From contig JANQRO010000273.1 of NCBI GenBank assembly GCA_028284525.1, positions 1-58,861 of the forward strand: 58,861 bases of DNA, read 5' to 3'. Origin of the DNA: Myxococcota bacterium (lineage in GTDB: Bacteria; Myxococcota_A; UBA9160; PR03). The notes beneath the pieces were generated by a model. The model worked only from the letters and a program-made list of their open reading frames with translations. It was not told where the DNA came from and did not search any database. How positions within the stretch are numbered: the first letter of the stretch is position 1; each line of letters begins with the position of its first letter. The position numbers were made by a program, and so were the translations under genes. This document shows, in pieces, positions 10,792 through 38,624 of the stretch.

Positions 10792-11156
10792 GGGGGCGAT
10801 CGGCTTCGACGGGTGGTCGAAGGCGAGCGCTGCGTGCCGAGATGGTCGCGCTCTCGTTAATCAGACGGCATTGTTGGTAGTTCATACCTGCCGACGACAA
10901 CTACGCACTCGCTGCTTAGCTAAACCCTGAGCTAGCGACGCCCGTCCCCGACGTCTCCTAGGGGGTCGCGGGCGTCATCAGGAGACTGGTCCCCGGCCGC
11001 TGGCAGACCGCATCCGGGGACGAGAGCCAAGTCTGCCTGGGTAGCGCTTCTCCCGGCGCCGCGACTGGCGCTACCGAGATCGGGCGGCACCTACGCACGT
11101 AGACGCGCTGGCTGGACGCCATTCGGACGCGGGTTCGATTCCCGCCGCCTCCACCA
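10792..11156 (+). ncRNA. ssrA: tmRNA (transfer-messenger RNA, one-piece)
   Basis: The 5' GGGGGCG pairs with the 3' CGCCTCC-ACCA, giving a G3:U pair. The T-arm is GCGGG-TTCGATT-CCCGC. The tag ORF gcc gac gac aac tac gca ctc gct gct tag (10890-10919) encodes ADDNYALAA. Length is 365 nt. Confidence 0.9.
11130..11156 (+). repeat. att core copy 1 (the functional 3' end of tmRNA)
   Basis: cgggttcgattcccgccgcctccacca. It is identical to 35862-35888. Confidence 0.85.
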
Positions 11157-11719
11157 ATTTATCCTTCTATTTCAGATGGTTAGAGAGATCGATTTTCGCT
11201 TGCGCCCACTCCGCGCCCAAAGTGGGTCGCTAGGGCTCGCGGAGACGAGGCCTCAAGACGTCGACGACTGCTTCTTGCAGATAGAAGCGTCCGTCCCGTT
11301 CAAACGCGGCTCTCGACCTCCTTCGCGAGATCCGAAGCAGACATGGAGAGCACCCCGGCGCACCTCCGGGCGCAGTGTTGGTGAGGTCCGCCGTGCTAGG
11401 GGTGCCGGCTCGAGGGGGTCCCGCCCCCCTCTCGTCGAGGCGCTGTTGGTCCATCGATTCGATGGATGAGTAGGTGTTAGGCGATCGCCTTCCAGTTGAT
11501 CTCGGTCCTCGCCCACGATCACGGCTCGATCGACTGCGCCTACTTCCTGCACAAAGAGGAGGACGTGGAGCATCGCGTGCATGCTGGCCCGATTTCGAGG
11601 ACGAACGCCGCGCGATCCATGACGTGGGGTAGCCGTTCCGCAGTGAGGCGTGCGACGCGCTGGAGGGTATGACACGCGGTCCCGTGAATCGCGCGTCACC
11701 CCGGGCCCGCAAGATCCCG

Positions 11720-12331
11720 TCACGCGCCGCCATCTTGGCGTTCGACCAGCGGTCTGAGGATTTCCTCGTACATGATTCGCTGAATCTTCGATCCACGCTC
11801 GTCGGCCCAATTCGTCGCGAGCTCTGCCATGAACTGGTTGGTCGACGTGATCGATACCCCGGCCTTCTCCATGCGTCGCACCGCGATGTCGTCCGCCGCT
11901 TGGGTGGGAGAACCACCGGCATCCACGACGACTTGGACGTCGTATCCCGCTTCGAAAGCGCTGATGGCGGGGAACACGACGCACACGTCGTTCGTTAGTC
12001 CGGCGATCACGAGCTGCTTTCGTTCGGTCGCTTGAACGGCGCTTGAGAAGTCCTCGTGCATCCACGCATCGACGATGCCCGGGCGTTTGATCCGCTGGTC
12101 GTAGGCTTTGGGCGCGATTTCCTTCAGGTCGTCGAGCAGCGGACCCTGGAACTGGTCCTCCTGGCTCGACGTCAAGACCAGCGGCATGCCCGTCTCAACT
12201 GCAGTTCGGGCCAGGGCCCGGGTGTTCTGCACGATCTCTTCGCGCGGGATGTTCCGAGCGAGCTTGATCGTTCCGACTTGGTGGTCGATGAGAAGCATTG
12301 CGGTGCTGTCCGGGGTGAACAAGTTCTTCAT
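11720..12331 (-). CDS. Isochorismatase-family cysteine hydrolase
   Basis: ATG at 12331 is preceded by AGGAGG. Translation reads MKNLFTPDSTAMLLIDHQ...VIAGLTNDVCVVFPA (catalytic Cys context). Confidence 0.8.
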   Translation of the reverse strand: MKNLFTPDSTAMLLIDHQVGTIKLARNIPREEIVQNTRALARTAVETGMPLVLTSSQEDQFQGPLLDDLKEIAPKAYDQRIKRPGIVDAWMHEDFSSAVQATERKQLVIAGLTNDVCVVFPAISAFEAGYDVQVVVDAGGSPTQAADDIAVRRMEKAGVSITSTNQFMAELATNWADERGSKIQRIMYEEILRPLVERQDGGA

Positions 12332-12615
12332 CGAAAGACCTCCTGGGTGTTCGATTTGCCGACTCATGAGACCACGCTACTCAAGGAGCGTACAAGGAGG
12401 GGCGCCTCGCTGGATCTTCCAACCAACCGATTGGAGCCATTGCCCCTCTCCTCCGACGACTGCTGTCTACGACAGGTCGACTCGTGGTCCTGGGTGTAGT
12501 TGGGAACGGCTTGTGTACCAAAGGACCTACCCCTGGCGAGGAACCGGTGCGCACGTTCCGCACCAACGAGGGCCTTGCCGAACTCGCGACTACGGCGCCG
12601 CAACGCCGCGAATCG

Positions 12616-13695
12616 TCAACGACCAACGATAGTACCGGCCCCGGTGGGGGAAGCGTCGGCCGCGTCCGTTGCCGGCGGTTTCTGTTCGGTGCGAAATCGC
12701 GGGAGGCATTCGGGATGGGAGGCCTGGAGATACGCGACGAGCTTTTCGCGGACTTCGCAGCGAAGCGCCCAGGCCACATCGGCGTTCGGCGCCGACACGA
12801 GGACACGGAGGCGCATCGTCAGTGGGCCCGCCTCCACCACCTGGAGGTTCCAGAACTCTCCGTCGAACTCCTGGCACTCGCTCAGGATCGACCCGACGGC
12901 GGCGCGGACCGTGGCGACAGGGGTTCGGTAGTCCACCTCGACGGTGAGAGCGCCGAGCAGGGCCGCGTCTCTCCGAGTCCAATTCTGGAAGGGCTCGGTG
13001 AGGAGAACGTGGAGCGGTACGATCAAGCGCCGGAGGTCCCAGAGCCGAACGACGATGTAGGTAGCCTCGATCTCCTCCACACGGCCCCACTCACCCTGGA
13101 TGACGACGACGTCGTCGAGCCGGACGGGCTGCGTCCACGCCAGCTGGACGCCGGCCATGAAGGCCTCCACGGTGGGCCGTGCGGCGATCCCGATGATGAT
13201 CCCCACGATTCCGGCTGAAGCCAAAAGACCGGCCCCCAGTGCGCGCATGCCCGGGAACGTCATCAGCGCCGCTGCGCCGCAGATCCCTATCGTTCCCACA
13301 ACGCCGAGGCGTCGGAGGACTTGGATGCGGGTTTGGACCTTACGCGCAAGGAGGTTGTCCGAGACATCCGTCGGGAACTGCTCTGAGACGAACGAGTCTG
13401 CGAAATTGAGCAGACCCACAAGACTCCACCCGACCGCTGAGATAAGAGCGAGCACCAGAGCACGACGCGCGACGTCAACCGCGGGGCCCGGCGAATCCCA
13501 GGCCAAGGGGAACGCGGAGCGAATGGCCAGGAGCGGCCCGAGCACAAGGAGCGCGCGGCCAATCGTGCGTACCAGCACGGTCGCGCTCTCCGGACGCTGG
13601 CGGCGCAGGGCCAACCAGAGGACCGCCACCACAAGGCCGGCGAGGGCGAGCCCGACTGCCGCCGCTGCTGCGAGCGTCGCGAACGCGTTGTCCAT
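12616..13695 (-). CDS. MscS-family mechanosensitive ion channel
   Basis: Shows the TM3 plus beta-domain pattern GIVGIIIGIAARPTVEAFMAGVQLAWTQPVRLDDVVVIQGEWGRVEEI. The start is set at ATG 13695 (GGGAG upstream). In-frame alternatives are 13707 and 13722. Confidence 0.8.
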   Translation of the reverse strand: MDNAFATLAAAAAVGLALAGLVVAVLWLALRRQRPESATVLVRTIGRALLVLGPLLAIRSAFPLAWDSPGPAVDVARRALVLALISAVGWSLVGLLNFADSFVSEQFPTDVSDNLLARKVQTRIQVLRRLGVVGTIGICGAAALMTFPGMRALGAGLLASAGIVGIIIGIAARPTVEAFMAGVQLAWTQPVRLDDVVVIQGEWGRVEEIEATYIVVRLWDLRRLIVPLHVLLTEPFQNWTRRDAALLGALTVEVDYRTPVATVRAAVGSILSECQEFDGEFWNLQVVEAGPLTMRLRVLVSAPNADVAWALRCEVREKLVAYLQASHPECLPRFRTEQKPPATDAADASPTGAGTIVGR

Positions 13696-13795
13696 CAGGG
13701 CTCCCATCGCGCCACCGGTCACTAGGCCGCGGCCCCCGACTCGGACCTAGCGTCCGGCCGCCCGGACCGTCTGGGCATTCTTCCGGTGGTCTAGA

Positions 13796-13989
13796 TCGTT
13801 TCAGCGAACCGAGCGCACCCAAATCGTTTCACTCGACAATCGCGTGCTTATCTATGTGCCTCCAAGTACAGTCAACGTCAACTCAGTGCGCTACGGGCGC
13901 GACGCAGAGAGAAGCCTGACCCCCACCAACGCTTCAGAGGTGGACTTCACAGGTCGCGCAGCGTGCTGTGATCTATCAAGCTAGCGTGC
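13796..13989 (+). pseudogene. 5'-truncated paralog of the 114-aa gene at 33657-34001
   Basis: The frame gives ...SFQRTERTQIVSLDNRVLIYVPPSTVNVNSVRYGRDAERSLTPTN... The full-length gene has ...TFSRKPELRTRIVSLDNRVVVNVLPSSVDVNSVRYARDSDGNLTLTD... There is no start codon and no N-terminal half. Confidence 0.6.
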
Positions 13990-14046
13990 GGGCTCGCCTC
14001 GACCCGACGCAACCGTGGGGACCGTATCGCTAGCTCACGCCGGCGT

Positions 14047-14322
14047 TCATGCGTATTCGAGCGTATGCCCAGAGGCCGTCGGTCGCGACGGAATCGAGAG
14101 TTCGAGCCAGCCCGATTCGCGTTCACGCCGAACCCGTACGACGACGACGGTTGCATCCCGATCGGTAAACCGACGGTGGGCCGCGCTGACGATGCGGCTC
14201 GCGAGCATCCGCGCGCCCACTTCCCCCGCCGATCGTACGATCGATGGCTCCTGGACGACATCCTCGGCCCCGTCGCTGCAGAGCACGAGCGTGTCCCCGG
14301 GTCAGAGTTCGAGGGTGAAGAT
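14047..14322 (-). pseudogene. PP2C-type Ser/Thr phosphatase C-terminal relic
   Basis: Reads IFTLEL*PGDTLVLCSDGAEDV...DRDATVVVVRV, which matches the PP2C C-terminal signature. There is an in-frame TGA at 14302-14304 and a TAA at 14323-14325. The N-terminal two-thirds are absent. Confidence 0.55.
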
Positions 14323-14366
14323 TTAGAAGGGCGTGTCGGCGAAATCCCCATTGAACGGGCGTTGTT

Positions 14367-14621
14367 TTAGGCCCCCACGGCTCCGCCGGCGAGCGCCCCG
14401 ATGCCCGCGCCGATCGCGGCGCATTTAGCGCGGTCGCGGCCGGTGAGGGCACCCACCGCGGCGCCGCCCGCGGCCCCAAGCGTGGCGCCCGTCGCGGTCT
14501 TTGAGAGCTGTGGCCGTCCTGTGTAGGGATGGGCCGTGCATGCGTTCGTGAAGAGCATTGCCGTGGCGATTCCACTACAGGCTCTCCGCCGCAACCACTG
14601 GTACCGCGTTTCCGTCTCCAT
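14367..14621 (-). CDS. Small glycine-zipper lipoprotein
   Basis: Has the lipobox-like sequence AMLFTNAC. The C-terminal half is a Gly/Ala zipper (GATLGAAGGAAVGALTG...AAIGAGIGALAGGAVGA). Confidence 0.5.
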   Translation of the reverse strand: METETRYQWLRRRACSGIATAMLFTNACTAHPYTGRPQLSKTATGATLGAAGGAAVGALTGRDRAKCAAIGAGIGALAGGAVGA

Positions 14622-14772
14622 CCGGTCTCCTCACCAACCGGTGCCTTCGCCTCAAGGTGTAGTGGCGGGACGTCCGGTGGTCGAGCGGGCCCGAAGCGAC
14701 GCGCCTGGCGCCCGAGCCAGGCGCCCGAGGGGATGCGCGCTCGTCGCCTTGGAGGAGAACTCGACCCGACGT

Positions 14773-15654
14773 CTAGGTAGCGGGGCGTTCAAGCTCGAGA
14801 ACGGATCTCCCGTTGTCGAAGAGTGTGACCGTTCCGGAGGATTCAGAGATGGCAAAGGCGATGGCGTCCGTCACCCGCGTGATCGCGGCGGCGGCGGCGT
14901 GTCGGGCGCCGAGTCCGCGTCGCAGTCGCACGTTCTTGGTGGGCGCATCGAGATACGTACCGACGGACTCCACTACACCGTCTCGGTTGACGACCACGGC
15001 GCCGTCGAGCGCGCAGAATTCCCGCAGCGACTCTGCGAACTCCGGACTGTGGATGCTGCGCACGCGGCGCGCGTGTCCTTTGCACGGGTTGAGGATGAGC
15101 TGACGCAGGAAGGGCTCGAGCTGCTCCTTCGCGCCAAGGACGAAGATCGCACCGATGGGCTTGCCTTCGCGGCCCTGCGCGGCAAAGCGCAGCGCGAGCT
15201 CCAGCAGACGCCCGAATTCCTTGGGGCCCACCAGCCCCTTCGTGCGATCCAGGTCTTGGTTGCGAAGCCACGGGAAGTCGCGGTTGGGCTTCGTGACGAG
15301 CATCAGATCGAGCTGACCCGAACCCGCGATGCCGGACAGGCACATGACGGTTTCGTCGAGCTCGATGTAGCCGCGGAGGGTGGCCGAATAGAGTCCCAGA
15401 TTGATCTGACTCATTCGAGTGAGGTTGGCGCTGGGAATCGGGAGCACGAGGTCCCTCAGGCGACCGCTCGGGGTTTCTCCCTCGTCCCGAACGAGCCAGA
15501 TCAGCCGCTCGGGCACCCGATGGGCAAGCAGGAGCTGACTTTGCACTTCGTCGGCGAGGACGAGCGCCGTATGGATTCGCAGAGCCTCCGCGAGGGCGAA
15601 CGCGTGCGAGTTGAACGCCGCCGCTTCTTCTCGTCTCGACCGGACAAGCGCCAC
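14773..15654 (-). CDS. Soluble diadenylate cyclase (DAC/DisA_N domain) with an N-terminal regulatory domain, CdaZ/DacZ-like architecture
   Basis: The C-terminal half carries DAC motifs: GAIFVLG, DGAVVVNRDG, GLGARHAAAAAITRVTDAIAFAISESSGTVTLFDNG. There is no TM segment. About 150 aa precede the DAC domain. Confidence 0.75.
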   Translation of the reverse strand: MALVRSRREEAAAFNSHAFALAEALRIHTALVLADEVQSQLLLAHRVPERLIWLVRDEGETPSGRLRDLVLPIPSANLTRMSQINLGLYSATLRGYIELDETVMCLSGIAGSGQLDLMLVTKPNRDFPWLRNQDLDRTKGLVGPKEFGRLLELALRFAAQGREGKPIGAIFVLGAKEQLEPFLRQLILNPCKGHARRVRSIHSPEFAESLREFCALDGAVVVNRDGVVESVGTYLDAPTKNVRLRRGLGARHAAAAAITRVTDAIAFAISESSGTVTLFDNGRSVLELERPAT

Positions 15655-16128
15655 AGCGCCGCTCTACACTTCGGCCCGGCGCCGGATCGCAAAGGATGGT
15701 CGGGAAACGATTTGGAGGAACGTCGGGGAACCACGCGTCCTATCTGATGGTTAGGGACAATGCAATCGTAGGCCGTCCCGCGCGCTCGTACGAGGACGCC
15801 GCGGGAGGCCTAGCCATGGCGTCGGCGGCGTCGCGGTGCTCCCGCGAGGGCCATGGGGTTGATGTCCCCCTCGAGTGCGCGTGGATACGCGTCTCCGCTC
15901 CCACCATGCGCCCACTCCGCTCGACCGTCGGCGCGGTACGCTCCCTGCCGAAGAGGCTGTCGCATGAGCAGCATGGAACTCGGGGCGATTGGGGAGTTGA
16001 CCGGAGGTGTCGCCTTCTGGCGCTGCGGCAAGAACTTCATTGCATGCGACGGCACGGGGCCTACCAGCGCGCCCCGAAGCGTATCCTCTCACGCAGAAGG
16101 CTACTACGAGGGTCGGCCTTTGAAGAAT

Positions 16129-16323
16129 GTGAAACTCGTCCTCTGCGCCGTCCTTTTGGGCGTCCTGGTGATCTTCAGCGCGCAAAACCACGAGGTTGTT
16201 CGCGTTCAGTTCCTCTTTTGGTATGTCGAGATGTCAAGGGCCGTATTGCTTTTTCTCGTCCTCGCGATCGGATTTGTGATCGGTTGGACCTTCGAGAAGC
16301 TCTTACGTCGTCGGGCCAGGTAG
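16129..16323 (+). CDS. LapA/DUF1049-like small membrane protein
   Basis: GTG at 16129. Translation is VKLVLCAVLLGVLVIFSAQNHEVVRVQFLFWYVEMSRAVLLFLVLAIGFVIGW, a two-TM pattern. Confidence 0.45.
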   Translation: MKLVLCAVLLGVLVIFSAQNHEVVRVQFLFWYVEMSRAVLLFLVLAIGFVIGWTFEKLLRRRAR

Positions 16324-16331
16324 CTCGCAGA

Positions 16332-17996
16332 TCAACTTCCTCCGGACGCGGCGCCGGAGCTGGTGCCCTCCGCGACCCCCAGGTGGCCGCTCACCTGGAT
16401 CGACGCGAGGAAGCGGGCGCCGCGCTCGATCTGCTCAGCGACCCGCCGGACGTTGCTGAGCCAGTCGAGCAGCGTCACGAGGTCGTGCACCGGGACGGTA
16501 CCGTCGGACCCCGCCTTGAGAAGTGTTGCCTTGAGCTCTTGGTAGCGTTGCTGGAGGTCAGCCAACTCACCGGCCATGTTTCCCGCCGAGTACTCATCTA
16601 GATCGACACCGGCTCGCTCGACAATCGTCCGTGCCTCAGCGACGAACGCTTCTACGCTTTCGCTCAACGTGGCGCTCTTCAAGGGCCCCTGATCGGCTCG
16701 GCCAGAAACCACCATACTGGAAAGTTCAGCTGCCTCCGTGTAATAGCGCGAGACTCGAAACGCGGTCGGGAGGTGCAGCGCGATCTCCTCCGACAGACGC
16801 GTGCGCTGGAGCTGCTGGGCATAGCCTCCGACCGCTTCGACGAGCGCCGAAAGCGATTGCTGGCCCGCATTGACGGCTTCTCTCGCGCCTCTACCGCCGC
16901 TCAAGGCGACGCCCGCTAGGCGGCGCGCTATCTGCCCGACACGGGCGAGTTCGAGTCCGACGGCGTCCAGCGCCAACGCCGGCGTCGCGATGACGTTACG
17001 ATCGAGAAATCGCGGGGTCGCTTCGTCTTCTTCCAGGGTCCGAAAACGTCCCTCGAGAAACTTGAGGAGCCGACTTGTGAATGGCCATAGCACGGCGACT
17101 CCCAATAGGTTGAATACTGTATGGAAGCCGGCCAAGACGGCCGCCGGTTCGGCGTCGAGATTCAGCATCTGACGCCCGCGCACAATTGCGACCAAGAGGG
17201 CGGGTAGGAGCACCAACGCAACAGTCCCAGTGACAACGTTGAACACGACGTGTCCCGCCGCGACGCGTTTCGCATTCGGCGTCGCTCCGATTACGGCGAG
17301 CGCAGCAGTTGATGTCGTCCCAACATTCGCACCGATCACCAGAGCGGCCCCAGCACCCAGGGGCACGACTCCGCCACCGGTCGCCGTCAAGATTATCGCG
17401 ATGGCGGCACTCGAGGATTGCATGAGAACCGTCAAGCCAAAACCGATCGCCACAAACAGAACCGCTCGGAAGACTCCAGCGCCAACGAGCGCACCTAACT
17501 CGACGTGGCCGCTGAGGCCGTCGAACGCCAGCCGCAGAGCGTCGATCCCTAGAAAGAAGACACCAAAACCCGCGAGCGCTTCGCCAAGCGGCCCGAGGCG
17601 GGGGCCCCGAGAGAGAAGACGCAGCGCCATTCCAATTCCCACGAGGGGAAGCGCGAACGCCCGAACGTTCACGTGAAAGCCCACTGCAGCGACGAGCCAA
17701 CCCGTCGTGGTGGTCCCGATGTTGCTTCCGTAGGTGACCGCGATCGCTTGACTCAATGTCAACAAGCCCGCGTTCACAAAGCCGATCGTCGCCACGGTGA
17801 TCGCACTCGACGATTGCACAAAAGAGGTTACGAAGAACCCGGAGGCGACACCCCGCATTTGGGTGCGGGTCGACCGCACGAGCACCTCTCGCAACCCGCG
17901 CCCCGCCGCGACCTTAAGGCCCTCCGTCATGAGCCGCATACCCAGCAGAAAGAGACCAATCCCGCCGAGCAAACGCGCGCCAAGCTCCCAGGTCAC
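16332..17996 (-). CDS. Na/Pi cotransporter family protein with PhoU-like C-terminal domain
   Basis: Shows GGIGLFLLGMRLMTEGL...QSSSAITVATIGFV and the second repeat QSSSAAIAIILT. The GTG at 17996 has GGAG upstream. The track ORF starts at a TTG at 18044. Confidence 0.85.
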   Translation of the reverse strand: MTWELGARLLGGIGLFLLGMRLMTEGLKVAAGRGLREVLVRSTRTQMRGVASGFFVTSFVQSSSAITVATIGFVNAGLLTLSQAIAVTYGSNIGTTTTGWLVAAVGFHVNVRAFALPLVGIGMALRLLSRGPRLGPLGEALAGFGVFFLGIDALRLAFDGLSGHVELGALVGAGVFRAVLFVAIGFGLTVLMQSSSAAIAIILTATGGGVVPLGAGAALVIGANVGTTSTAALAVIGATPNAKRVAAGHVVFNVVTGTVALVLLPALLVAIVRGRQMLNLDAEPAAVLAGFHTVFNLLGVAVLWPFTSRLLKFLEGRFRTLEEDEATPRFLDRNVIATPALALDAVGLELARVGQIARRLAGVALSGGRGAREAVNAGQQSLSALVEAVGGYAQQLQRTRLSEEIALHLPTAFRVSRYYTEAAELSSMVVSGRADQGPLKSATLSESVEAFVAEARTIVERAGVDLDEYSAGNMAGELADLQQRYQELKATLLKAGSDGTVPVHDLVTLLDWLSNVRRVAEQIERGARFLASIQVSGHLGVAEGTSSGAASGGS

Positions 17997-18182
17997 GGCC
18001 GCTCCGATTTGCTTCTCACGCCCTCTGCAGGGAGGATACCTCAATCATGGGCGCGGCCGAGATCGGGCGCGGCCGTGTGGTCGTCTCGCCGAACTGGAAA
18101 CCTCTTCTTTTTGACCAGCGCGTTATCCGAGCGTGCGTACGAAGCGTTCCGGGCGCCATGCGAGACCTTGGAGTGGCGCGGT

Positions 18183-19205
18183 CTAAACTCCACCCGAGAA
18201 CTCGTAGGCGACGATGAGGCTGACTGCGTACAAGCCGATCAGCACGAACGAAACGAACCCAATGCGCCAGAATCGATGCGTGCTCCGTACCGCGATCGCG
18301 CCGAGCACGATCGCCTGCATAACAATCGCAGTCGCGGCCATAAAGATCGCCGACAACGCCTCGGCTCGTCCGGCGGCGTAGAAGAGCGCACCCCCAAGGA
18401 AGAACAGGTCCGCGACGCCGAGTAGCGGCAACAAGAACGCGTTGGCCCCGAGGACGTTCCCCAGCACCAGGTCGAGCTGACCACGGCGCGTCGACGCGAT
18501 GCCATTCGTGACCTCGGGCAGGCTCGTCACGATGCCGAGCATCGTTGCCCCGGCGAATGTCGCGCCCAGCGAGTAGCGTTCGGCAATGGCTTCTACGGTC
18601 ACGCCGAGCTGAAAAGCCGAGATGACGATGGCGCTTCCGACGGCAGCGAAGGCCCCGACCAAGACGACCGTCGACTTCGTTTCCCAGAAACCCGAAATGC
18701 TCGACTCCGTTGGAACGAAGCTCTGTTGGGCGAGCTTGTAGACGATGTATTGCCCGACGCAGTAAAGCAGCAGTATTGCGAGCGCCGTGATGCCGAGTGG
18801 ACCGATGCGAGGTCCCGTTGGTCCGAACAGTGCGACGTGGCCGAGGCCGATACCGTTGATGGCGAGCGCAAGCATCGCGATGCCGAGTAGGCCGGTGGCG
18901 ATATGGTTGGCGGAGAGCCGATCGTAAACCGCTTTTGGGCTCAGAACATCCATGATGACGAGGATGAATAGATTGAAAATGCAACTACCGAAGATGTTGC
19001 CGAGCGCGATGCCGACCGCGCCGCGGCCGGCGACCGTGGTCGTCGTAACCATTTCCGGAAGCGTCGTCGCCACCGAGAGCAGCACTGTACCCGCCCACGC
19101 CTGTCCGAGCTGAAGCCGGTCCCCGAGCACGCCGACGATGCGTCCGACGACCACGCCCGCAGCGATGACGACGATGGACCACAAAACGAAGGCAAGCCAA
19201 ATCAT
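18183..19205 (-). CDS. CaCA-family cation/Ca2+ exchanger (YrbG-like)
   Basis: Alpha-repeat motifs LSVATTLPEMVTT...GNIFGSCIFNL and GIVTSLPEVTNG...GNVLGANAF. GAGGAA precedes the ATG. Confidence 0.85.
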   Translation of the reverse strand: MIWLAFVLWSIVVIAAGVVVGRIVGVLGDRLQLGQAWAGTVLLSVATTLPEMVTTTTVAGRGAVGIALGNIFGSCIFNLFILVIMDVLSPKAVYDRLSANHIATGLLGIAMLALAINGIGLGHVALFGPTGPRIGPLGITALAILLLYCVGQYIVYKLAQQSFVPTESSISGFWETKSTVVLVGAFAAVGSAIVISAFQLGVTVEAIAERYSLGATFAGATMLGIVTSLPEVTNGIASTRRGQLDLVLGNVLGANAFLLPLLGVADLFFLGGALFYAAGRAEALSAIFMAATAIVMQAIVLGAIAVRSTHRFWRIGFVSFVLIGLYAVSLIVAYEFSGGV

Positions 19206-19958
19206 GGAGTTTCCTCAACTGCTTTCGTGCGATGCCCATAGTGGATATGCGACATGCATAGGTCGCGACGGAGCGTCGCCGGGCATCACTATCGTCCTCC
19301 GCGGCCCAGGTGGTCTCAGTTGCCCATCGACACTCCTAACCAAGTGGCCGACTGTCCGAAGGTGAGAGGTAAGTTACTCTGCCACAAGATCGCCAACTCC
19401 CAGACGCAGACCTTCGCAGACCTCTCCATCCAACCTGTCGAGCGCCAGGCACGACTTACCGCGATTGCGACGAGTACCTGGTACCGACTGCCCAGCCGCC
19501 GTTGCGTAGTGAATCGATGAAGCGGGTACCAACCCTGTTAGGGCCTCGGAACTTCGCGGTGTCGTGGTAGAGGCACGTTTCCCGATGCGGGGCATCGGCG
19601 CTTCGAAGCGATCGATGTCGCTGGCAACCGCTGTGGGAGCCCTCGATCTTGGCCGAGGCCAGGAGGTGCCCCGGGATGCTGTGGGCGCTGGGTTCTCGTT
19701 GAGCTCACACGTGCCTGATGGCCACGAGCAGGGCGATGCTCGGGAAGAGTCTGAGCATCCGGCTCGGGCAGCGGCGTTGCGCTATGAAGCACGAGGAGCG
19801 CGCCGCGGGTGGAACCTCCGCGATCATCCCGCGGGTTACCGCCGCGATCTCGGGACTGCCGTCGGAATCTAAGTCGCGTCTCGAGCGGTCGTTTCGGGCG
19901 CTCTCGGAGTGAGCCTACCTACCGGCGGGGCGACGCTATCCTACCTAGGAGTCGACCT

Positions 19959-20990
19959 GTGTTCGAATCCCTTGGCGCTAGCATCGTCGGCTTCGGCGTC
20001 GCCGCTGCGGTCATTTCGCTATGTGGCGTCGGGCTCACGCGGGTCGCTGACCGGCTCGCGGACCGTACCGGTTGGGGTGAAGCCCTGCTCGGCGGCCTGT
20101 TCCTGGCTGGCGTGACCTCTCTCCCCGACTTCGCGGCGACGCTGACGGCCGCGGCGAGCGGTCTCCCGGAACTCGCCCTCGGCAATTCGTTGGGTAGCGT
20201 CGCCGTCAACCTCGCCTTCCTTGGGGTGGGGGATCTGGCCTACCGCAAGGCGAACCTCGAGCATGCGGCGGCATCGTCGAGCAATCTGATCAACGCAACG
20301 CTTTCGATCGTGTTGCTGCTGTTTCCCCTGCTCGCAATGGTGACGCCGATGTTCGATGTTTGGGGCGTTCACCCCGTGAGCGCGGTGCTCCTTGCGGCCT
20401 ACGTGTTCGGCAATCGCCTGATCCGGGAGGACCGGCTTCGACCGATGTGGCGGCCGCGGCGAACGGCGCAAACCGTGAGTGACGAGCCTGAAACGGTCAC
20501 GCGCCGAGGCGAGACGACCCTCGCCGGGCTGTGGCTTCGCTTTGCAGCACTGGCAGCGGCCACCGCGCTTGCCGGCTGGGGGATGATGAACGCCGCTGAA
20601 ACTATCGTCGCCGAGACGGCTCTGTCGGAGACCGTCGTCGGCACGCTCTTCACTGCGTTCTTCACGTCGACGCCCGAGCTGGTGACGACGATCGCGGCGA
20701 TCAGATTCGGAGCGCTGACGCTCGCCGTGAGTAACATCGTGGGCACCAACGCTCTGACGGCGGTGGTGATTGCCGTCGCCGACTTCGTTTACGTCAGCGG
20801 CTCGATATACCACGCGGTGGCGGCAGCGCAACAGCTCTGGCTCGTGGTGGCGCTACTCATGACGGCGATCTTGTTACTCGGACTCCTGCGCCGGGAGCGC
20901 TACGGGATCGGTCGGATCGGCTTCGAGAGCTTCCTGATTCTGCTGATCTACCTGGCCGCCACGGCCAGCCTCCCGCTTATCGGCGATTGA
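19959..20990 (+). CDS. CaCA-family cation/Ca2+ exchanger, second paralog
   Basis: GTG at 19959 with AGGAG 7 nt upstream. Motifs are GVTSLPDFAATL...GNSLGSVAVNL and FFTSTPELVTT...SNIVGTNAL. Confidence 0.8.
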   Translation: MFESLGASIVGFGVAAAVISLCGVGLTRVADRLADRTGWGEALLGGLFLAGVTSLPDFAATLTAAASGLPELALGNSLGSVAVNLAFLGVGDLAYRKANLEHAAASSSNLINATLSIVLLLFPLLAMVTPMFDVWGVHPVSAVLLAAYVFGNRLIREDRLRPMWRPRRTAQTVSDEPETVTRRGETTLAGLWLRFAALAAATALAGWGMMNAAETIVAETALSETVVGTLFTAFFTSTPELVTTIAAIRFGALTLAVSNIVGTNALTAVVIAVADFVYVSGSIYHAVAAAQQLWLVVALLMTAILLLGLLRRERYGIGRIGFESFLILLIYLAATASLPLIGD

Positions 20991-21111
20991 CCGGGCTTCG
21001 TATCCGGATTCCAGTACGCGGGCGGCCGGAGACCCATAGAGACGTTCTGGGTTGCAGAGACCGGATCAGCGCTGACTGCCTCATCGCCTCCCGGAACCGT
21101 CTCGACTGGCA

Positions 21112-21782
21112 TGGCCTGCGTTTGACCTGAAGAAGGGCCTCGAGCACGGCAAGCAGCGCTGCATCGCTCTGCTCGAGAGCCTGCGCTTCGGTCACCCTCT
21201 CGCGGTCGAGAATCCGGATGATCGCTACCCCGACCTGGACTTCGGGCCGGTGATCAGCGCGGAGAAGGCCGAGGAGCTGCACGGGTGCTACGAGGAAGGG
21301 GTGCGCTTGGGCGGAATCCCGTTGGCCCACCGCGCACTACAGGACGGACGCTTCCTGCCGAATCAGGACGAATCGGCGTACGTCGCTCCCGCAACAATCC
21401 TTGGGCCGCCGTCGTCCTGGTCGCTGCACCGTCGCGAACCCTTCGGCCCGCTTGACTCGATCGTCGTCGTCGGCTCCGAGCCTGAGCTCATTGCGGCCAT
21501 GAACGCCTCGAACGGCGCGTGAGTGTCGTCGATCGCCACAGACGACGAGGCGCTCGCACACCGCGTCGCAGAGGAGCTGCAAGCCAACGGACCGCGCTCG
21601 CGCGGCGACCGCGACGAGGTCTTCGGCGGCAAGGGAGCTTCTTGGAAAGGGGCTTCGTGGGGGGCGACCTGCTCGTGCAAGCGGTCACCCGCCCTGCAAA
21701 CGGCTCGAGCTACACCCTCTTCGGCAACTTCCCGACGTACTCCCTCTATCCGGCGGGCGCGGGTCTAGCGGCAGGCGCATGA
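21112..21782 (+). pseudogene. Aldehyde dehydrogenase C-terminal relic
   Basis: Reads ...DFGPVISAEKAEELH...REPFGPLDSIVVVGSEPELIAAMNASNGA*VSSIATDDEALAHRVAEELQA...EVFGGKGASWKG/FVGGD. There is an in-frame TGA at 21520-21522 and a frameshift near 21650. The N-terminal half of an ALDH is missing. Confidence 0.7.
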
Positions 21783-21833
21783 ACCGTTGAGGACGGTCGC
21801 TCAGGGGAAGGCGGAGCGCGGCGATCCCGCGGG

Positions 21834-23069: not shown

Positions 23070-23395
23070 GTCTTCTCCGATCGAGTGAAGAGCGGCGCGG
23101 GCTCGACGGAGAACGAGCGCCAGTCTGGCACGCCCACGTCGATCGACGCTTCTCGATTCGCAGCGAGCCGTTGGCGTTGTCGGAGCTCGCGAGCCCGATC
23201 TTAGCGCGGGCCATTTCGGTACCGGTCGCGCGCGCATCCACGGGTGGAAGACAGCAGCGGTCCTGTGCGAAGGGCAGGCTTCTCTGACGCGCACCGATGC
23301 CCCAGCTTGAGGCGTGTTGCCTCCGGGCACCCGCCGAAGAAGACACCTCCCCGAAGGAGTGGGGCGAAGACTGGCACCGATCTTGCGAAGCTAAG

Positions 23396-27219: not shown

Positions 27220-27312
27220 GAGCTCGATCCTCCACGCAGGCGGGCAATGATACGCTATCGCCCGCGCGGGAAGTCGATCCTGACTCCGCGGCGAGCGAGA
27301 GAAACATACACG

Positions 27313-28143: not shown

Positions 28144-28188
28144 TAGTCGCGTCCGCTCTACGACGATCTCGCGACCGCGGCCGGCGTG

Positions 28189-28710
28189 CTACTCGACATC
28201 CTCGGGTCTGTCCGGTCGCAACCACGGCAATGTGTCTGAGACGGGCGGAGGGGACTCGCCGGGATCCACCAGATGAATGTCGAGGTGGCTCCTGGTTTCA
28301 TCATCGAAGAATCGCTGAGCGTACCGCCACCACTCCAGGCCGCCTGGCTCCTTGAGGAGTGCCAAGCAGAACGCTCCGCGGCGGTTCAATTCGATTCGAC
28401 TCTCCAGACCCCGTTGATGCATTTCCAACGTTTGTTCATAGTCCTCTACCAAGTGGGAGAGAATGATGCCAAACACCATCTTGTCTTGACTTCGAAGCTG
28501 GCTGAAATCGGCAAGTCCGGTTTGAACCACGGCCGGGTAGCGGGCGAGGCGATCGAGGTTTCGTTGAAAGGTGAGCCGGCCGTATTGGTGGATAAGGCCA
28601 AGGGCCAGCTCGCGGCCCCTTCGGATCTGCAGAGCGACGCAGAAGATTCCGACCGCCGCGGCGAAACCGCCGACACCGAACCCGAGAATGGCGAATTCCG
28701 AGGCGTTCAT
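28189..28710 (-). CDS. Hypothetical membrane-anchored protein
   Basis: ATG at 28710 with GAGGA upstream. There is one N-terminal TM helix (FAILGFGVGGFAAAVGIFCVAL). GC content is lower and the composition is protein-like. No family was recognised. Confidence 0.45.
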   Translation of the reverse strand: MNASEFAILGFGVGGFAAAVGIFCVALQIRRGRELALGLIHQYGRLTFQRNLDRLARYPAVVQTGLADFSQLRSQDKMVFGIILSHLVEDYEQTLEMHQRGLESRIELNRRGAFCLALLKEPGGLEWWRYAQRFFDDETRSHLDIHLVDPGESPPPVSDTLPWLRPDRPEDVE

Positions 28711-29187
28711 CGTTGAGTCCTCTCGATGGCGGAGAAATGTGTTGTCGCAGTGCGGCAGGCTGCCGCCGTCTCGCGAGAGCATCCGCCTCAGGCGCGGGAG
28801 CGCAAGCTCGGTCGACTCGTTGTCCGTGCCCCACACTTCTCGAGCCGCCCCGTTCGGGGTGGCTGTCGAAAGAGGCGCGATCGATTGCGGCCGGCTCCGA
28901 GACTCGATGCCCGACGGAAGCGGAAGTGGATGAGTCCGGTCGGGACCTCGCAGGCACGGTCGATCGTCTCGAGGAGGTCTGCGCCACCGCGGTCCACGCT
29001 TCGGCCCCCGAGCGAGCGTGGCTCGAGGACGGCGACCGGGCCTGGATGCCGCAGCGGGGGATGACGAGACAAAGCGCCACCCTGGGGCGGGCCGGCTTTG
29101 CACACGGGACCCGCTCCCGGAGCACCGAGGGCGAGTTCTACATCAGCCCCGACGGCCACGCCGCTGGCCGTTGTGAGGAGCGGTTTC

Positions 29188-30351
29188 GTGCCTAGCTGGG
29201 TCTCTGTTGCGGGGTGGCTCGACGCGCTCGATATCGCGCTCGTGGCCAGCTTCGTCTGGTTGGCGATCCGCTATTTCCGCCGTACACGCAGCCGCGCAGC
29301 CGCCGTCGGGCTCGCCTTGATCGCCGGCATCTACCTCGTGGCTCGAGCTCTCGACCTTGAGCTCACCGCTTCGATCTTGCAGGGGTTCTTCGCGGCGCTC
29401 GTACTCGTAGTCGTGGTGGTCTTTCAGGACGATCTTCGTCGCCTGTTCGAACAGCTCGGATCGTGGTGGCGTGGTCGCGAAACAGGAACCGCCGAGACGG
29501 AGACGCTGGATCAATTGGTTCGCGCCGTCGCGAGACTCGCCGGGTCGCGCACCGGCGCATTGATTGTGCTTGCCGGACAAGAACCGCTCGACCGCCACAC
29601 CGAAGGAGGCGTGGTGCTCGGCGGCCGGGTGAGCGAACCGCTCCTGTTGTCTCTCTTCGACGCTAGTTCTCCGGGTCACGACGGGGCGGTGGTTCTCGAC
29701 GGCCAGGACGTCGAACGCTTCGCGGTCCACCTCCCGCTGTCCGCCAACCGCGCGGCGCTCGGTCCTGGCGGCACCCGCCATGCGGCAGCTCTCGGACTCG
29801 CGGAGCGCTCGGACGCGATCTGCATCGCCGTCTCCGAGGAGCGGGGAACGGTCTCCGTCGCGCAGGACGGGGTGATCCGCACTCTCTCCCGCCCGGAGGA
29901 CCTGATCATCGAGTTGCGCGCGGCGTTTCGGGAAGAGCCGGAGAACCGGCAATGGTGGCAGGGCGGCATCGGTCTGGACGCCGCGGCGGCTATTCTCGTG
30001 GCTTTGCTCCTATGGGTCGTCTTCGTCCCCGGATCAGACCTGGACGAGGAGACCCTTTCGGTACCGGTCACCGTCTCGAACCTCCCGGATGATCTGGAGC
30101 TTGAGTCGGTGGAACCGGCGGCGCTCGATGTGACCTTCCGGGGGCTGCGCCGGGACCTGCTAGTCGCGCAACGCGGCGGGGTTTCGGTCCACATCGATGC
30201 CTATTTGGCGCGTCTGGGACGCCGTACCTTCACCGTCTCGGCACAGGATGTGAGAAAGCCCGAGTCGATTGCGGTGGTGACGGTGACACCGGAGAAAGTG
30301 CGCCTTTCCCTACGCGCTGCCAAGGGTGGCGACGGGGCGACACCTGAGTGA
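29188..30351 (+). CDS. cdaA: Membrane diadenylate cyclase CdaA fused to a YbbR (CdaR-like) domain
   Basis: GTG at 29188. N-terminal TM helices (WLDALDIALVASFVWLAIRYF...) precede the DAC motifs GALIVLAG, HDGAVVLDG and GTRHAAALGLAERSDAICIAVSEERGTVSVAQDG. An extra TM helix (AAAAILVALLLWVVFV) and a YbbR-like repeat (LSVPVTVSNLPDDLELESVEPAALDVTFRG...) follow. Confidence 0.8.
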   Translation: MPSWVSVAGWLDALDIALVASFVWLAIRYFRRTRSRAAAVGLALIAGIYLVARALDLELTASILQGFFAALVLVVVVVFQDDLRRLFEQLGSWWRGRETGTAETETLDQLVRAVARLAGSRTGALIVLAGQEPLDRHTEGGVVLGGRVSEPLLLSLFDASSPGHDGAVVLDGQDVERFAVHLPLSANRAALGPGGTRHAAALGLAERSDAICIAVSEERGTVSVAQDGVIRTLSRPEDLIIELRAAFREEPENRQWWQGGIGLDAAAAILVALLLWVVFVPGSDLDEETLSVPVTVSNLPDDLELESVEPAALDVTFRGLRRDLLVAQRGGVSVHIDAYLARLGRRTFTVSAQDVRKPESIAVVTVTPEKVRLSLRAAKGGDGATPE

Positions 30352-33653: not shown

Positions 33654-33656
33654 CGC

Positions 33657-34001: not shown

Positions 34002-34046
34002 CGGCCTCTCCGACGTCCGGGGCGCCAATACCAGGAACTCGGCGCG

Positions 34047-35012: not shown

Positions 35013-35861
35013 GCACGTCGCGCTGTCGACCGTGGAACCACGGGTACGCGAGGAAGAGGAACCGAGAATCTGATCCAAGTCAACGCCCCGTTGCGATCGC
35101 GGACAGTGGAAAGGAGTAGCGCTGATCGATTGGTGGGTCCACGTCGGCCTAAGATCCCGACCTTGCGATGACGTCACTCAACAAGTGAGGAATCAATAGG
35201 TCCAGAGCCGATCTCTCAAGAAATCGATCGGCCGCGAATCGCACTCAAATCGGAATTCTCGCCGGCGAGGTCATCGCCGATCGGCGAGTATGGAACGACA
35301 AACCGATCGCGCTGACCACGGGCGCTGCGTCCGTGCAGGTCCGTGCCGATCGGAAACGAACGCTCGCTTCGTTCCTCCATTCCGCGATCCGCGCTCACCT
35401 GGCGAGACTGAGGGGACATCGAGGCTCGAGCGGAGTTATGTCGCCGATCACAGTGACGCCGGTCGCCAGCGGAGCCGGCTCTCGTAGGTTGAGCAGCTGA
35501 GATGGTTCAACTGCGCGGCGACCCCTTTTGCGAAGCGCTTCGACGCGGCTCGTTCTCCCTACGGCAGGCGTTCTCGTTGCGCGGTCGCGGCGGCCTCGCC
35601 AGATTCGACATTGCTTCTGCTCCGAGAGAAACGCTTCCAAGCCTCGATCTCAAGTAGTCGTCCGACGCTCCGCCAGGTCGGTGAGGCGAACAGCTGGTTT
35701 TGCTCGCTGGGCTGCCACGGTTGGGGCGGCTTCATGTAGAACGCAATCGTGCGTAGCCACCCGGAGGGCGCTCGGCGGCCTCGTTCGAGCGTGCGCCCAC
35801 TCCACGCCCACATCTCCGGAAAGAAAATTGAACCGAATCGATTACTTAGAGGATTGACCGC

Positions 35862-35888
35862 CGGGTTCGATTCCCGCCGCCTCCACCA
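35862..35888 (+). repeat. att core copy 2 (displaced tmRNA 3' end), perfect
   Basis: 27/27 identity to 11130-11156. It is followed by a T-rich flank similar to that after ssrA. Confidence 0.85.
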
Positions 35889-36031
35889 TTTTTTCCCTTT
35901 CGATTCAGGCGCTTGTGATCGGCCGTTTCGGTCAACAGGGTCGCCACAGGTAGACGCGCCAACGCGCTCCGCTGCCTCATGTCGATCCGAACGGTCGAGC
36001 GTATCCACCTGCGGCGGCGTGCGTCTCCCCC

Positions 36032-37471
36032 TCAGAAGGAGACGTCCCACTGCAGGCGAACGCGGTGACCATCCGTGTCGTCGTTCGCGAACCCGTCGTC
36101 GAGCGTCAGGTACGAGTAGTCCAGCGTCACCTTGTTGTTGTGGCCGGCGATGAACCAGTTCGCGGCGACCGAGTGCTCCTGGCGCTTGTTGTCGAAGCTG
36201 CGGTCGGTCCCGTTCGGCTCCTCGAGCCAGGCATACCGATACGCGAGCTCGAGCGGCTCGGGGAACCAGTCGAAGATCTCGTTGAAGAAGTAGCCAGACT
36301 GGGCGTAGACCCCGTAGAGATTGTTCGTCGAGTCGGCCGGGCCACGATCCTCGACGCGCTTCCAGTGGAACTCCTGCTGGGCCGAGAAGCCCCGCCACTT
36401 GAAGGCGAAGCCCTGTTGCGCCTGGTCGATCCGAAACTGGCCGTCGCTCGCGGCCGCTGGGCTCGTGAAGCCGTCCAGGTTGCCGCATCCGCTCGACGAC
36501 CAGCGCGTGCAGCGACCTTTCGTGGTCGAGGCCGCCACGCTCAGGCTGCCGGTGGGCTTCTCCGTGCGCTCGACGTCGGTCTGTCGCAGCGCGAGGTCGC
36601 GGCCGAGGAAGTTCCACTGGAGGCGCCCGACGTACATCATGTTGTCGTCGTCGTTGGTCACGCCGCGCCCCTGTCCGTTGAACACCCCCGCGTAGTAGCG
36701 GAGGTCCGCGGGCGTCCCCTCGAACAGGTGTCCGCGTAGCTGAACGCCCATCTGCCGGTCGATCGTGAAGATGCGGTTGATGATCGAGCGCTCGACGAAC
36801 TGCTGGCGACCCGAGGAGTCGACGCGCTCGCGGTTGTAGTCGATCTTCCACTGTCCCACGCGCAGCCCGATCGCCTCGTACTTCGCGATATCCGCACGCC
36901 AGTCGATCACGCGGGTGCTCGCCGTGGCAGAGCTGTCGTCTGCGTCCCGCAGCGGCATGAGATCCACCTCGAAGTAGTACTTGAGCCAGGGGCGGTAGCC
37001 GTGACCGCCGATCTTCATTCGGAGCCGTCGCGCTTGGAAGCTCGTGCCGTCCTCGTCGCGGAAGGAGGTCAGTGAGCGGGGATCACCCTGATACGGACGG
37101 GTCACACGGAGCTGGGCCCGCCACTGCAGGTTCGTCTGCCAGTTGCCATCGCGCGTCTCGAGACGAAACCCCTTGCTCCCGTAGCTGGCCTTGACCGGGA
37201 ACTCCTTGTTTAGTTTCTCGTCGACGGCCTGGGCGATCTCTTCGCGGATGACCGGATCGGCCGCATCCACCCGCGAATCCGCCACTTCCGTTTCGGGCGC
37301 AGGATCGGGCTCGCGGTACCTGAGGTGGTCGTACTGCTCCTGGGTAATGGACCCGTTGCTGAGCAGGATGTCGAGCAGCTCCTCGTCGGTGGCGCGCGCG
37401 CCCCCGGACGAGGCAAGGAACAAAATGAACGCGGCGACGACGCCGCGTCTCCATGCGAGGCAAACGTTCAC
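36032..37471 (-). CDS. Phosphate-selective porin O/P family outer-membrane protein
   Basis: GTG at 37471 with GGAGAAGGAG upstream. The signal peptide is ...AAFILFLASSGGARA. The beta-barrel pattern includes RLRMKIGGHGY...WLKYYFEVD and ends ...VRLQWDVSF. Confidence 0.8.
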   Translation of the reverse strand: MNVCLAWRRGVVAAFILFLASSGGARATDEELLDILLSNGSITQEQYDHLRYREPDPAPETEVADSRVDAADPVIREEIAQAVDEKLNKEFPVKASYGSKGFRLETRDGNWQTNLQWRAQLRVTRPYQGDPRSLTSFRDEDGTSFQARRLRMKIGGHGYRPWLKYYFEVDLMPLRDADDSSATASTRVIDWRADIAKYEAIGLRVGQWKIDYNRERVDSSGRQQFVERSIINRIFTIDRQMGVQLRGHLFEGTPADLRYYAGVFNGQGRGVTNDDDNMMYVGRLQWNFLGRDLALRQTDVERTEKPTGSLSVAASTTKGRCTRWSSSGCGNLDGFTSPAAASDGQFRIDQAQQGFAFKWRGFSAQQEFHWKRVEDRGPADSTNNLYGVYAQSGYFFNEIFDWFPEPLELAYRYAWLEEPNGTDRSFDNKRQEHSVAANWFIAGHNNKVTLDYSYLTLDDGFANDDTDGHRVRLQWDVSF

Positions 37472-37549
37472 GAAAGGCTCCTTCTCCGCATGAGCCGGCG
37501 GAAATCGGCTTGGATTCTCGAGGGCGGGACGGTCGAAGCGAACTGTGAC

Positions 37550-37607
37550 GTTCACGTGAACATCAGGTGGCAATCCGGCGAAAGGTGAACATCGGGTGGC
37601 AATCCGG
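37550..37607. promoter_or_regulatory. Palindrome plus two 23-bp direct repeats upstream of the porin gene
   Basis: The palindrome GTTCACGTGAAC lies at 37550-37561. The repeats gtgaacatcaggtggcaatccgg (37556-37578) and gtgaacatcgggtggcaatccgg (37585-37607) match 22/23 and their starts are 29 bp apart. They sit 80-135 bp upstream of the porin start. Confidence 0.4.
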
Positions 37608-37930
37608 AGACATTCTGCCGAAGTCGTCTCGGCTGGAACGCCGTTTGCGTCCTGAGAGTCGCCTGGCAGCGTGGTGTCTTGAGCGACCACGGCGCCCGCC
37701 ACAGTGGCTTCTGGATCGCAGATGTCCGCTGCAAGGACATCCGTCTGATGGCTCGGTTGCACGGTCGGGCGGCGACCGTGGCGGGCTCTCACTGTGGCGT
37801 GGGCAGGGGTTGCGCTACCTCGCCAGCTTGTGGCTCTGATCTATCGATCACAGCGGGCAGACTCTCGGTACTTGGCGAGGGTGGGCGAGAAGACGGACAC
37901 ATCCCGCGACGCAACGGCGACTCACGAACT

Positions 37931-38624
37931 CTAAGCAGAGAACGTTCGACCTTCCGCGCGGTGAGGCACCTGCGGACGCAGGTTCGATTCCCGCCGCCAC
38001 CACAATTTCCTTCCTATTGTCAGCAAGTTACGAGAGCGGGGTTTCGTCGGAAACTCATTGGAGACTCCAAGCCGCGCGAGCGCGCTTCCCACCGCGGTGG
38101 GCCGGACCTTCGAGTAGGGCAGCACACTGCGCACGTCGGTGTGGCCGAAGAGCGCTGCGATCACCCGGTCATCGACCCCCTCATCCTTGAGCGCGGTGCC
38201 GAGGGGGTGTTTGGTCCCCTCGTAGACACCGACCCGCTCGACTCCCGCGGCGTCGCAGGCCGCGTACCAAGTCCGGCGGAGAGCGGTCTCACTCCACCAG
38301 CCACCGGCGTTGTAGGCGTCCGGGTTCACGAACGGCGGTCCGTCTGGATCTGAGAGGCGTCGCTCGGCGGGCACGTAGCCACTGGAAGCGTGAAAGCCGG
38401 CGAAGACGTTCTTGTGTCTTGCCGCCCAGCCCCTGTTCCGCAAGCCAGTAGCTCCAAGCCTCGAGATTGACTGTGGTGATGTCGAAGATCGTGCGGTCCC
38501 ACCACCACCGGAAGTAATCGTATCGGGCTTGCTTGCAGGAGCCTACCCAGCGGGTGTAGTCACGCAGCGTGCGCGGGGCGCGGTCATGCGCCGCAACCTT
38601 CTTTGCGAAGAGCTCGAGAGGTTC
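37931..38624 (-). pseudogene. Tyrosine recombinase (phage integrase) relic: N-terminally truncated, frameshifted, internally deleted
   Basis: One frame gives the SAM-like core-binding part (PRTLRDYTRWVGS...ITTVNLEAWSYWLAEQGLGGKTQ). A second frame gives the catalytic C-terminus (GTKHPLGTALKDEGVDDRVIAALFGHTDVRSVLPYSKV). The box I region is absent. The 3' end runs into att copy 3. Confidence 0.7.
37973..38008 (+). repeat. att core copy 3 (degraded tmRNA 3' end)
   Basis: cggacgcAggttcgattcccgccgccAccac-aattt compared with tmRNA cggacgcGggttcgattcccgccgccTccacCaattt (11124-11160). Confidence 0.75.

Follow-up and report, generated by a model that had tools for sequence, protein, structure and literature searches.

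The window analysed here is one entire contig (JANQRO010000273.1; 58,861 bp) of a metagenome-assembled genome (MAG) from an uncultured Myxococcota bacterium, and its central feature is the tmRNA gene, ssrA, behind which copies of the gene's own 3' end recur along the same strand. The gene is intact, encodes the tag peptide ADDNYALAA according to ARAGORN, and is the sole RNA matched in an Rfam scan of the window. Ordinary core genes lie 5' of it (tolB, tsaD, rsmA, panC, smpB, an M10 protease gene, rfbC and rfbB). Downstream, the repeated ends, referred to here as cores, delimit three blocks that we call islands 1 to 3, followed by a last stretch that runs to the contig end:

10792-11156, + strand: ssrA (tmRNA gene), intact; ARAGORN, and Rfam RF00023 with 150 bits over the full length.
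11130-11156, + strand: att core copy 1 and attL core of island 1; covers T-stem, T-loop, acceptor 3' strand and CCA; exact 27-mer.
11157-35861: island 1; 24.7 kb, 64% G+C, with a cargo of ion and osmotic homeostasis genes and cyclic di-AMP (c-di-AMP) genes by Pfam.
35862-35888, + strand: att core copy 2, serving island 1 as attR and island 2 as attL; exact 27-mer.
35889-37972: island 2 remnant; 2.1 kb with a single gene.
37973-38005, + strand: att core copy 3; 33 nt, with 3 changes in the alignment to ssrA.
38006-40948: island 3 remnant; integrase relic, membrane protein gene (38649-39101) and truncated DUF4336 gene (39796-40491).
40949-40961, + strand: probable fourth att core remnant CGCCGCCTCCACC; 13-nt exact match in an intergenic gap, blastn-short E 0.033.
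40962-58861: further accessory DNA of lower G+C (64-67%) up to the contig end; island or chromosome.

The preliminary description of this DNA had suggested comparing the composition of the region with that of core DNA, and a difference is found exactly at the end of ssrA. The G+C content is 72% upstream of the ssrA 3' end and 64% from 11157 on, and it stays within 61-68% from there to the end of the contig. Third-position G+C follows the same division, with values of 0.85-0.95 in the upstream genes and 0.72-0.82 in the genes of island 1. A departure from the core genome of this kind is a property of Islander-type islands, and here the change is placed at 11157.

The last 27 nucleotides of ssrA, CGGGTTCGATTCCCGCCGCCTCCACCA, occur with 0 mismatches at 11130-11156 and at 35862-35888, which bears out the perfect recurrence reported previously, and with 3 mismatches at 37979-38005; 0 of 100 dinucleotide shuffles of the window contained a match. 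Copy 3 reaches farther in the 5' direction, to 37973 (CGGACGC), and its alignment to ssrA displays all three changes that had been ascribed to this decayed copy, namely G>A in the T-stem, T>A, and a 1-nt deletion (one C) in CCACCA. Every core copy lies on the + strand, in direct orientation, and only downstream of ssrA. The Islander configuration, in which an intact tmRNA gene is accompanied by displaced 3' fragments downstream in direct orientation, is thereby seen for the cores at 11130, 35862, 37973 and ~40949. Core decay rises with distance from the gene, from 0 differences to 3 and then to a copy of which only 13 nt are recognisable. The identification of the repeats as displaced ssrA 3' ends is supported by these observations.

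The DNA that follows each core was compared with that of related loci. The tag-coding sequence was used to scan 185,579 species genomes, which gave 95 stretches, chiefly of Myxococcota MAGs. Together with two loci from an earlier search, 74 loci have an ssrA that is 70-91% identical to that of the window and reaches its 3' end; single loci carry L numbers. A common layout is found in relatives after the CCA: about 12 A/T-rich bases, a motif matching the consensus WATCARNNNNTTR of the integration host factor (IHF), about 15 bases, two direct repeats, and then the stop codon of an integrase gene. The direct repeats are 8-11 nt long with a period of 11-12, and their sequence varies by element, being GGAGGAACA in L017, L032 and L072, GGGCGCCACAT in L071, TGAGGCAC in L069, L075 and L076, and ACTCGGGGCAA in L022 and L044. 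Tandem 9-mers are present after the cores in 27/84 flanks of relatives vs 6.7% of random control positions, and an IHF-like motif at +5..+35 in 20/84 flanks vs 0.6% of control positions. The same elements can be recognised behind the cores of the window:

11170-11182, + strand: IHF-like motif TTTCAGATGGTTA after copy 1; one mismatch to WATCARNNNNTTR.
11202-11219, + strand: putative P' arm-type sites of island 1, GCGCCCAC-TCC-GCGCCCA; two repeats, period 11.
35793-35810, + strand: putative P arm-type sites of island 1, GCGCCCAC-TCC-ACGCCCA.
35903-35915, + strand: IHF-like motif ATTCAGGCGCTTG after copy 2; one mismatch to WATCARNNNNTTR.
38018-38030, + strand: IHF-like motif TGTCAGCAAGTTA after copy 3; one mismatch to WATCARNNNNTTR.
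38047-38066, + strand: putative P' arm repeats of island 3, TCGGAAACT and TTGGAGACT, period 11; 7/9 positions agree.

The A/T-rich IHF-like motif starts about 13 nt past the core end in each of copies 1-3, so that the similar flanks noticed earlier behind the three copies are indeed present and have this motif in common. Two short tandem repeats, the putative arm-type sites, lie 3' of the motif at copies 1 and 3, and those of island 3 sit between the core and the 3' end of the integrase sequence, as in L072. In phage lambda, attP is made up of the core, the IHF H' site and the arm sites P'1-P'3, and int is transcribed toward att. The window and its relatives present the same P' order of core, IHF-like motif, tandem direct repeats and integrase 3' end, with a second set of repeats on the P side; they differ from lambda in the tmRNA target, the identity block of 27-33 nt at the core and the two repeats per arm, and their integrases are only distantly related to lambda Int. 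By this analogy the tandem repeats may be arm-type integrase sites and the A/T-rich motif an IHF site. As judged from sequence motifs alone, a lambda-type attP is suggested by the expected positions of the motifs, their enrichment after relatives' cores and the presence of the arm motif at both ends of island 1. Four viral contigs of IMG/VR (L100, L120, L143 and L147) carry the identical 27-nt core without any remaining ssrA, followed by an IHF-like motif and two tandem repeats, so that the sites there are attP or attR; the design of core, IHF-like motif and tandem repeats extends beyond the Myxococcota in these contigs. This layout of the group's ssrA-specific integrases, with its variable arm repeats, could help island finders to spot islands that have no integrase.

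A relic of such an integrase adjoins the third core. It lies on the - strand at 38072-38618, frameshifted and internally deleted (tblastn, Pfam and profile hidden Markov model, HMM), and it points toward copy 3 with its 3' end about 67 nt away, which confirms the earlier report of a tyrosine-recombinase relic transcribed toward this copy. One piece matches residues 336-431 of the L072 integrase with 47% identity (tblastn E 1e-18), and a second piece, in another frame, matches residues 148-212 (E 6e-6); the relic is also homologous to the L032 integrase. It is without about 123 internal residues (L072 213-335, including the IRPSE Arg-I box) and without the N-terminal 147 residues, and retains the C-terminal H, GH and Y. 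With Pfam PF00589 it scores 23.2 bits vs a cut-off of 27.1, over profile positions 106-168 only, and so falls short of a tyrosine recombinase by that measure; the L072 integrase passes Pfam Phage_integrase with 53.9 bits. An HMM built from the relatives' integrases finds the relic with E 5e-23 and has no other match in the window. The integrase of island 3 is dead. No integrase was detected within 11157-37972 by tblastn, iterated integrase HMM or Pfam, and six-frame reading, tblastn at E up to 10 and the iterated HMM revealed no integrase remnants in 11157-11720, 35177-35861 or 35889-36031. The earlier suggestion that the integrases were lost or decayed therefore agrees with what is found, since islands 1 and 2 have none and island 3 has the relic.

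The relatives show how such genes are placed when they are present. In 11 loci besides the window, nearly all from Myxococcota MAGs, an integrase or integrase fragment lies directly downstream of ssrA in convergent orientation; it ends no farther than about 110 nt from the core, or overlaps the core. In five others (L069, L070, L071, L075 and L079) the element-type flank is kept and an unrelated gene occupies the place of the integrase, which indicates that integrases have repeatedly been lost while the att flank stayed in place. A second core is found 0.7-3.6 kb downstream in 11 loci, so that short core-bounded islets like island 2 are common in the group.

Island 1 is the only block with matching ends. 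The 18-nt motif GCGCCCACTCC(G/A)CGCCCA has exactly two occurrences in the window, both on the same strand, vs a chance expectation of 0.02; one lies 46 nt past the end of core 1 (11202-11219) and the other 52 nt ahead of the first base of core 2 (35793-35810). This identifies 11157-35861 as a single element with complete attL and attR. The motif is absent from all 99 related loci checked. Comparable arrangements exist in relatives, where L016, L058 and L092 likewise have tandem repeats 50-75 nt upstream of their second cores, and L069, L075, L092 and L014 have matching P and P' motifs on both arms. An att-flanked element without recombination and transfer modules is a cis-mobilisable element (CIME), and island 1 has this structure, with perfect 27-nt cores, the 18-nt arm motif at both ends, complete att sites and no recombination or transfer function encoded; Pfam found no recombinase, relaxase or type IV secretion system domains in the open reading frames scanned, which were all but a few short ones. 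It differs from known CIMEs in its cargo and host, and no cognate integrase or integrative and conjugative element (ICE) was found for it. CIMEs of streptococcal ICESt1/ICESt3-type accretion are referred to in PMC3146451. From its sequence, island 1 could be mobile now only if a matching integrase were supplied in trans.

The probable fourth core gains weight from what lies behind it:

40978-41016, + strand: 'type-2' post-core flank AAGTTGTG-N7-GAGAACCCGCAGCCAC; nhmmer E 0.03.

This segment starts 16 nt past the fourth core remnant and is the window's top nhmmer match to a profile made from the relatives' post-ssrA flanks only. The type-2 flank, about 90 nt long and non-coding, follows ssrA or the last core in eight relatives (L094, L066, L092, L055, L016, L014, L010 and L058); its pattern has a single match in the window and in related loci occurs only beside cores. 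By our own estimate, the chance of a core remnant and a type-2 flank co-occurring on the same strand and in the right order is roughly 1e-6. The spacing at the fourth copy is about 15 nt off from that in the relatives, and indels have to be assumed. We consider 40949-40961 a probable decayed fourth copy.

The type-2 flank also holds an inverted copy of a segment of the ssrA T-stem (GAAAACCCGCATCCGC vs GCGGACGCGGGTTC), and an integrase following it was never seen in the relatives' loci. Its interpretation as the native chromosomal flank, which would mark the end of the array, was not upheld as a firm reading: L014 and L016 have a further core downstream of it, and there is no conserved synteny except for katG in L092.

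Based on these data, we regard it as highly probable that integrative elements entered the ssrA 3' end through site-specific recombination by tyrosine integrases, and that the region holds their remnants as a tandem array. The attP of each element would have carried a copy of the last 27-33 nt of ssrA. On integration, this copy would rebuild a working ssrA and push the old 3' end, together with everything behind it, downstream; three and probably four such rounds would leave the cores at 11130, 35862, 37973 and ~40949. On the P' side, each element would have presented the core, the IHF-like A/T-rich motif, two short direct repeats that probably bind the arm domain of the integrase, and the integrase stop codon, the gene being convergent on ssrA. 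Island 1, which has a perfect core and the 18-nt arm motif at both ends, would be the youngest and would have lost its integrase, and we take islands 2 and 3 to be deletion remnants. At least three successive integrations of related elements had been proposed in the preliminary description; the direct cores, the composition break, the homology of the relic and the attP-type flanks support that proposal, and the count can be refined to probably four copies. The accompanying idea that the newest island is the proximal one, an order that we infer, fits the decay gradient (0 differences, then 3, then 13 nt left), and this gradient, with matched arms in the proximal island only, fits a model in which the newcomer displaces the older elements.

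Several findings weigh against this interpretation. Islands 1 and 2 contain no integrase, excisionase, transfer or phage genes and fall outside the Islander criteria, which expect an integrase in every island, the sole integrase sequence being the relic at 38072-38618. The ends of islands 2 and 3 have no arm motif in common, only 7-8-mers at chance level. The distal boundary of the array lies outside the contig, which ends first, and the sequence itself comes from a MAG contig. A search of metagenome contigs of the Joint Genome Institute (JGI) with the core plus arm motif of island 1 gave no match, and no relative of the island bearing this arm motif. No close relative turned up with an empty site, meaning an unoccupied ssrA beside the same downstream neighbour, and the contigs of the closest syntenic relatives, L002 and L004 (protease 76% and 66% identical), end just before or inside ssrA. 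These two were obtained by protein search; a scan of genome contigs with the lineage-specific M10 protease gave no relatives. The closest ssrA, in L017 (91%), has only 119 nt downstream of it and a different upstream context. A metagenome scan with the last 43 nt of ssrA yielded 12 contigs, 76-79% identical over ssrA except for L169 (Ga0307444_1036179), whose ssrA end is 98.5% identical over only 66 nt of the gene. Nothing downstream in L169 matches the window; DNA of 74% G+C follows ssrA directly, with a PEP-CTERM-like protein and no attP-type flank, and by its sequence this contig is a candidate for an unoccupied site in a relative.

That the array, or most of it, arrived in one step is quite unlikely in our view. 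It would then have accreted in another genome and been excised and integrated as a composite island, as in ICE/CIME accretion, with the internal cores recording the history of the donor. The similar G+C of islands 1-3 and of the DNA beyond copy 4 (0.64-0.67, with 0.72 upstream) suits such an arrival, and co-mobilisation of adjacent tandem ssrA islands has been proposed (PMC3146451). However, the core decay is graded from proximal to distal, the junctions differ in their arm motifs with matched ends in island 1 only, and a single arrival requires outer att sites recognised by one integrase, with the distal end placed outside the contig. A still less probable reading takes the cores for a dispersed repeat, or for ssrA ends duplicated locally without any part played by mobile elements. 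Apart from the missing recombinase genes in islands 1 and 2, which this reading would explain, it can scarcely be reconciled with the locus, where all copies share a strand and occur only downstream of ssrA, copies 1-3 bear the attP-type flank found by intact integrases in relatives and in viral contigs, and one copy adjoins an integrase relic.

We also considered that the junction between ssrA and island 1 is a chimera of metagenome assembly, in which two organisms were joined at the conserved ssrA 3' end and the drop in G+C reflects two genomes. In favour of this, the window amounts to a complete MAG contig, several lineages have the last 43 nt of ssrA in identical form, and assemblies do break at this point. 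An independent Logan unitig from run SRR20820731, 100% identical to 11130-14371, ends at the first core base, as a de Bruijn graph does at a true repeat, and in 11 of the 74 relatives the contig runs out no more than 140 nt past ssrA, which suggests assembly breaks induced by repeats or strain variation at the hotspot. Yet the shared exact stretch of 27-66 nt is below the usual final assembly k-mers, and the tetranucleotide signature of the 49-59 kb segment correlates with the upstream DNA with an r of 0.85, near the 0.87 between the two upstream halves. The downstream block, moreover, has three more ssrA-type cores, element-type flanks and an ssrA-type integrase relic, and would be an ssrA-linked array whichever genome it belonged to. 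A chimera is for these reasons very unlikely.

It is established that islands insert into the tmRNA gene, that the element restores the gene, and that islands stack in tandem. Tandem islands at tmRNA genes, some members being without an integrase, have been described (PMC4383910, PMC3146451). The tmRNA gene is the most enriched target in Islander, which lists 125 tandems of at least two islands and 4 of at least three (PMC4383910). The array of the window shares with the Islander tDNA islands the intact target gene, the displaced 3' fragments in direct orientation, the crossover in the T-arm part, an integrase placed next to the intact gene, and the arrangement in arrays of two or more. It differs in that Islander requires an integrase for each member, whereas here one of three or four members keeps integrase sequence, and that is dead; by these criteria only island 3 comes near qualifying, most of the array would escape Islander, and the host is an uncultured Myxococcota MAG. 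In Dehalococcoides (PMC3146451), multiple tandem islands are likewise found in the 100 kb downstream of ssrA, with a short direct repeat from ssrA as their boundary, and some of them have no integration module and were likened to cis-mobilisable elements. Their recombinase is a large serine enzyme (DsiB) and their repeat is 20 bp long, in contrast to the tyrosine integrase relic, the 27-33-nt cores and the arm-type and IHF-like flanks of the window.

The current understanding of island formation is unchanged by this locus, which represents a well-known kind of hotspot in a decayed state. It documents that ssrA has served again and again as an integration hotspot in an uncultured Myxococcota lineage of high G+C. 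Accessory DNA makes up about half of the contig and includes a block of genes for osmotic and ion stress, and island callers that depend on an integrase would pass over about 27 kb of DNA that is clearly foreign.

Pfam assigns the products of island 1 to an isochorismatase-family protein, two MscS-type channels, two proteins with a diadenylate cyclase (DAC) domain, a Na/Pi cotransporter, two Na/Ca exchangers, a CNNM/CorC protein, a Na:dicarboxylate symporter, a frameshifted MgtE, RimK with a Zn-protease partner, an XRE regulator and a solute-binding protein. The DAC proteins are encoded at 14773-15654 and, for a CdaA-like one, at 29098-30351. Over 12616-30351 the cargo is strikingly uniform and resembles an osmotic/ion-stress module. 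No homologues of the island genes occur among the 99 related loci. The best homologues of the isochorismatase (11720-12367), 70-83% identical, come from Planctomycetota, Cyanobacteria and Pseudomonadota rather than Myxococcota, which fits a foreign origin of island 1; Legionella, Microbulbifer and Sulfitobacter are among the genera represented.

We consider unlikely a more far-reaching proposal, in which island 1 would be a still-mobilisable satellite that owes its perfect cores and matched arm-type sites to being moved by a cognate ssrA integrase encoded elsewhere in the genome or community, and the type-2 flank could be a hitherto undescribed functional element of recombination or RNA processing. 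If true, island 1 would shuttle a 24.7-kb module of ion-homeostasis and c-di-AMP genes between marine Myxococcota.

The remaining features of islands 1 and 2 are:

25083-26399, - strand: mgtE, split by a frameshift, with MgtE_N and CBS in one frame and the membrane domain (25091-25651) in another (Pfam, translations).
~36032-37462, - strand: phosphate-selective porin O/P (Pfam PF07396), the only gene of island 2.

The split marks mgtE as a pseudogene, or else stems from an error of assembly. About 100-150 nt upstream of the start codon of the porin gene, a unit of about 29 nt, GTGAACATC(A/G)GGTGGCAATCCGG..., is present in two tandem copies (37556-37610), which from their sequence may be a regulator-binding site. 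They were found by reading the sequence; Tandem Repeats Finder (TRF) did not report them and added nothing relevant elsewhere.

In island 3, the DUF4336 fragment (39796-40491) covers profile positions 13-162 of 321. Beyond the island follow genes for a short-chain dehydrogenase/reductase (SDR), a truncated Dph6-like protein, KatG, a DUF2141 protein, a TetR regulator and a Rieske oxygenase, and farther distal those for a rhodanese, an MBL-fold protein, DabA/DabB, a LysR regulator and a sulfatase, the last recognised from its translation only. The fragment resembling Dph6 (diphthamide synthase) at 43777-44166 corresponds to profile positions 86-214 of 219 and, with the DUF4336 gene, adds to the picture of gene decay in the region. 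Across the open reading frames scanned from 11.7 to 51.7 kb, Pfam found transporters, enzymes and regulators only, with no domains of phage structural or lysis proteins, conjugation or transposases; by this annotation the region is neither a prophage nor an ICE. The DabA (DUF2309) and DabB (NDH subunit 5-like) genes form a pair with a divergent LysR regulator gene at 51711-56769, of the kind described as an inorganic-carbon uptake system, and 5.8 kb of this region are 100% identical in a Logan contig of SRR20820731.

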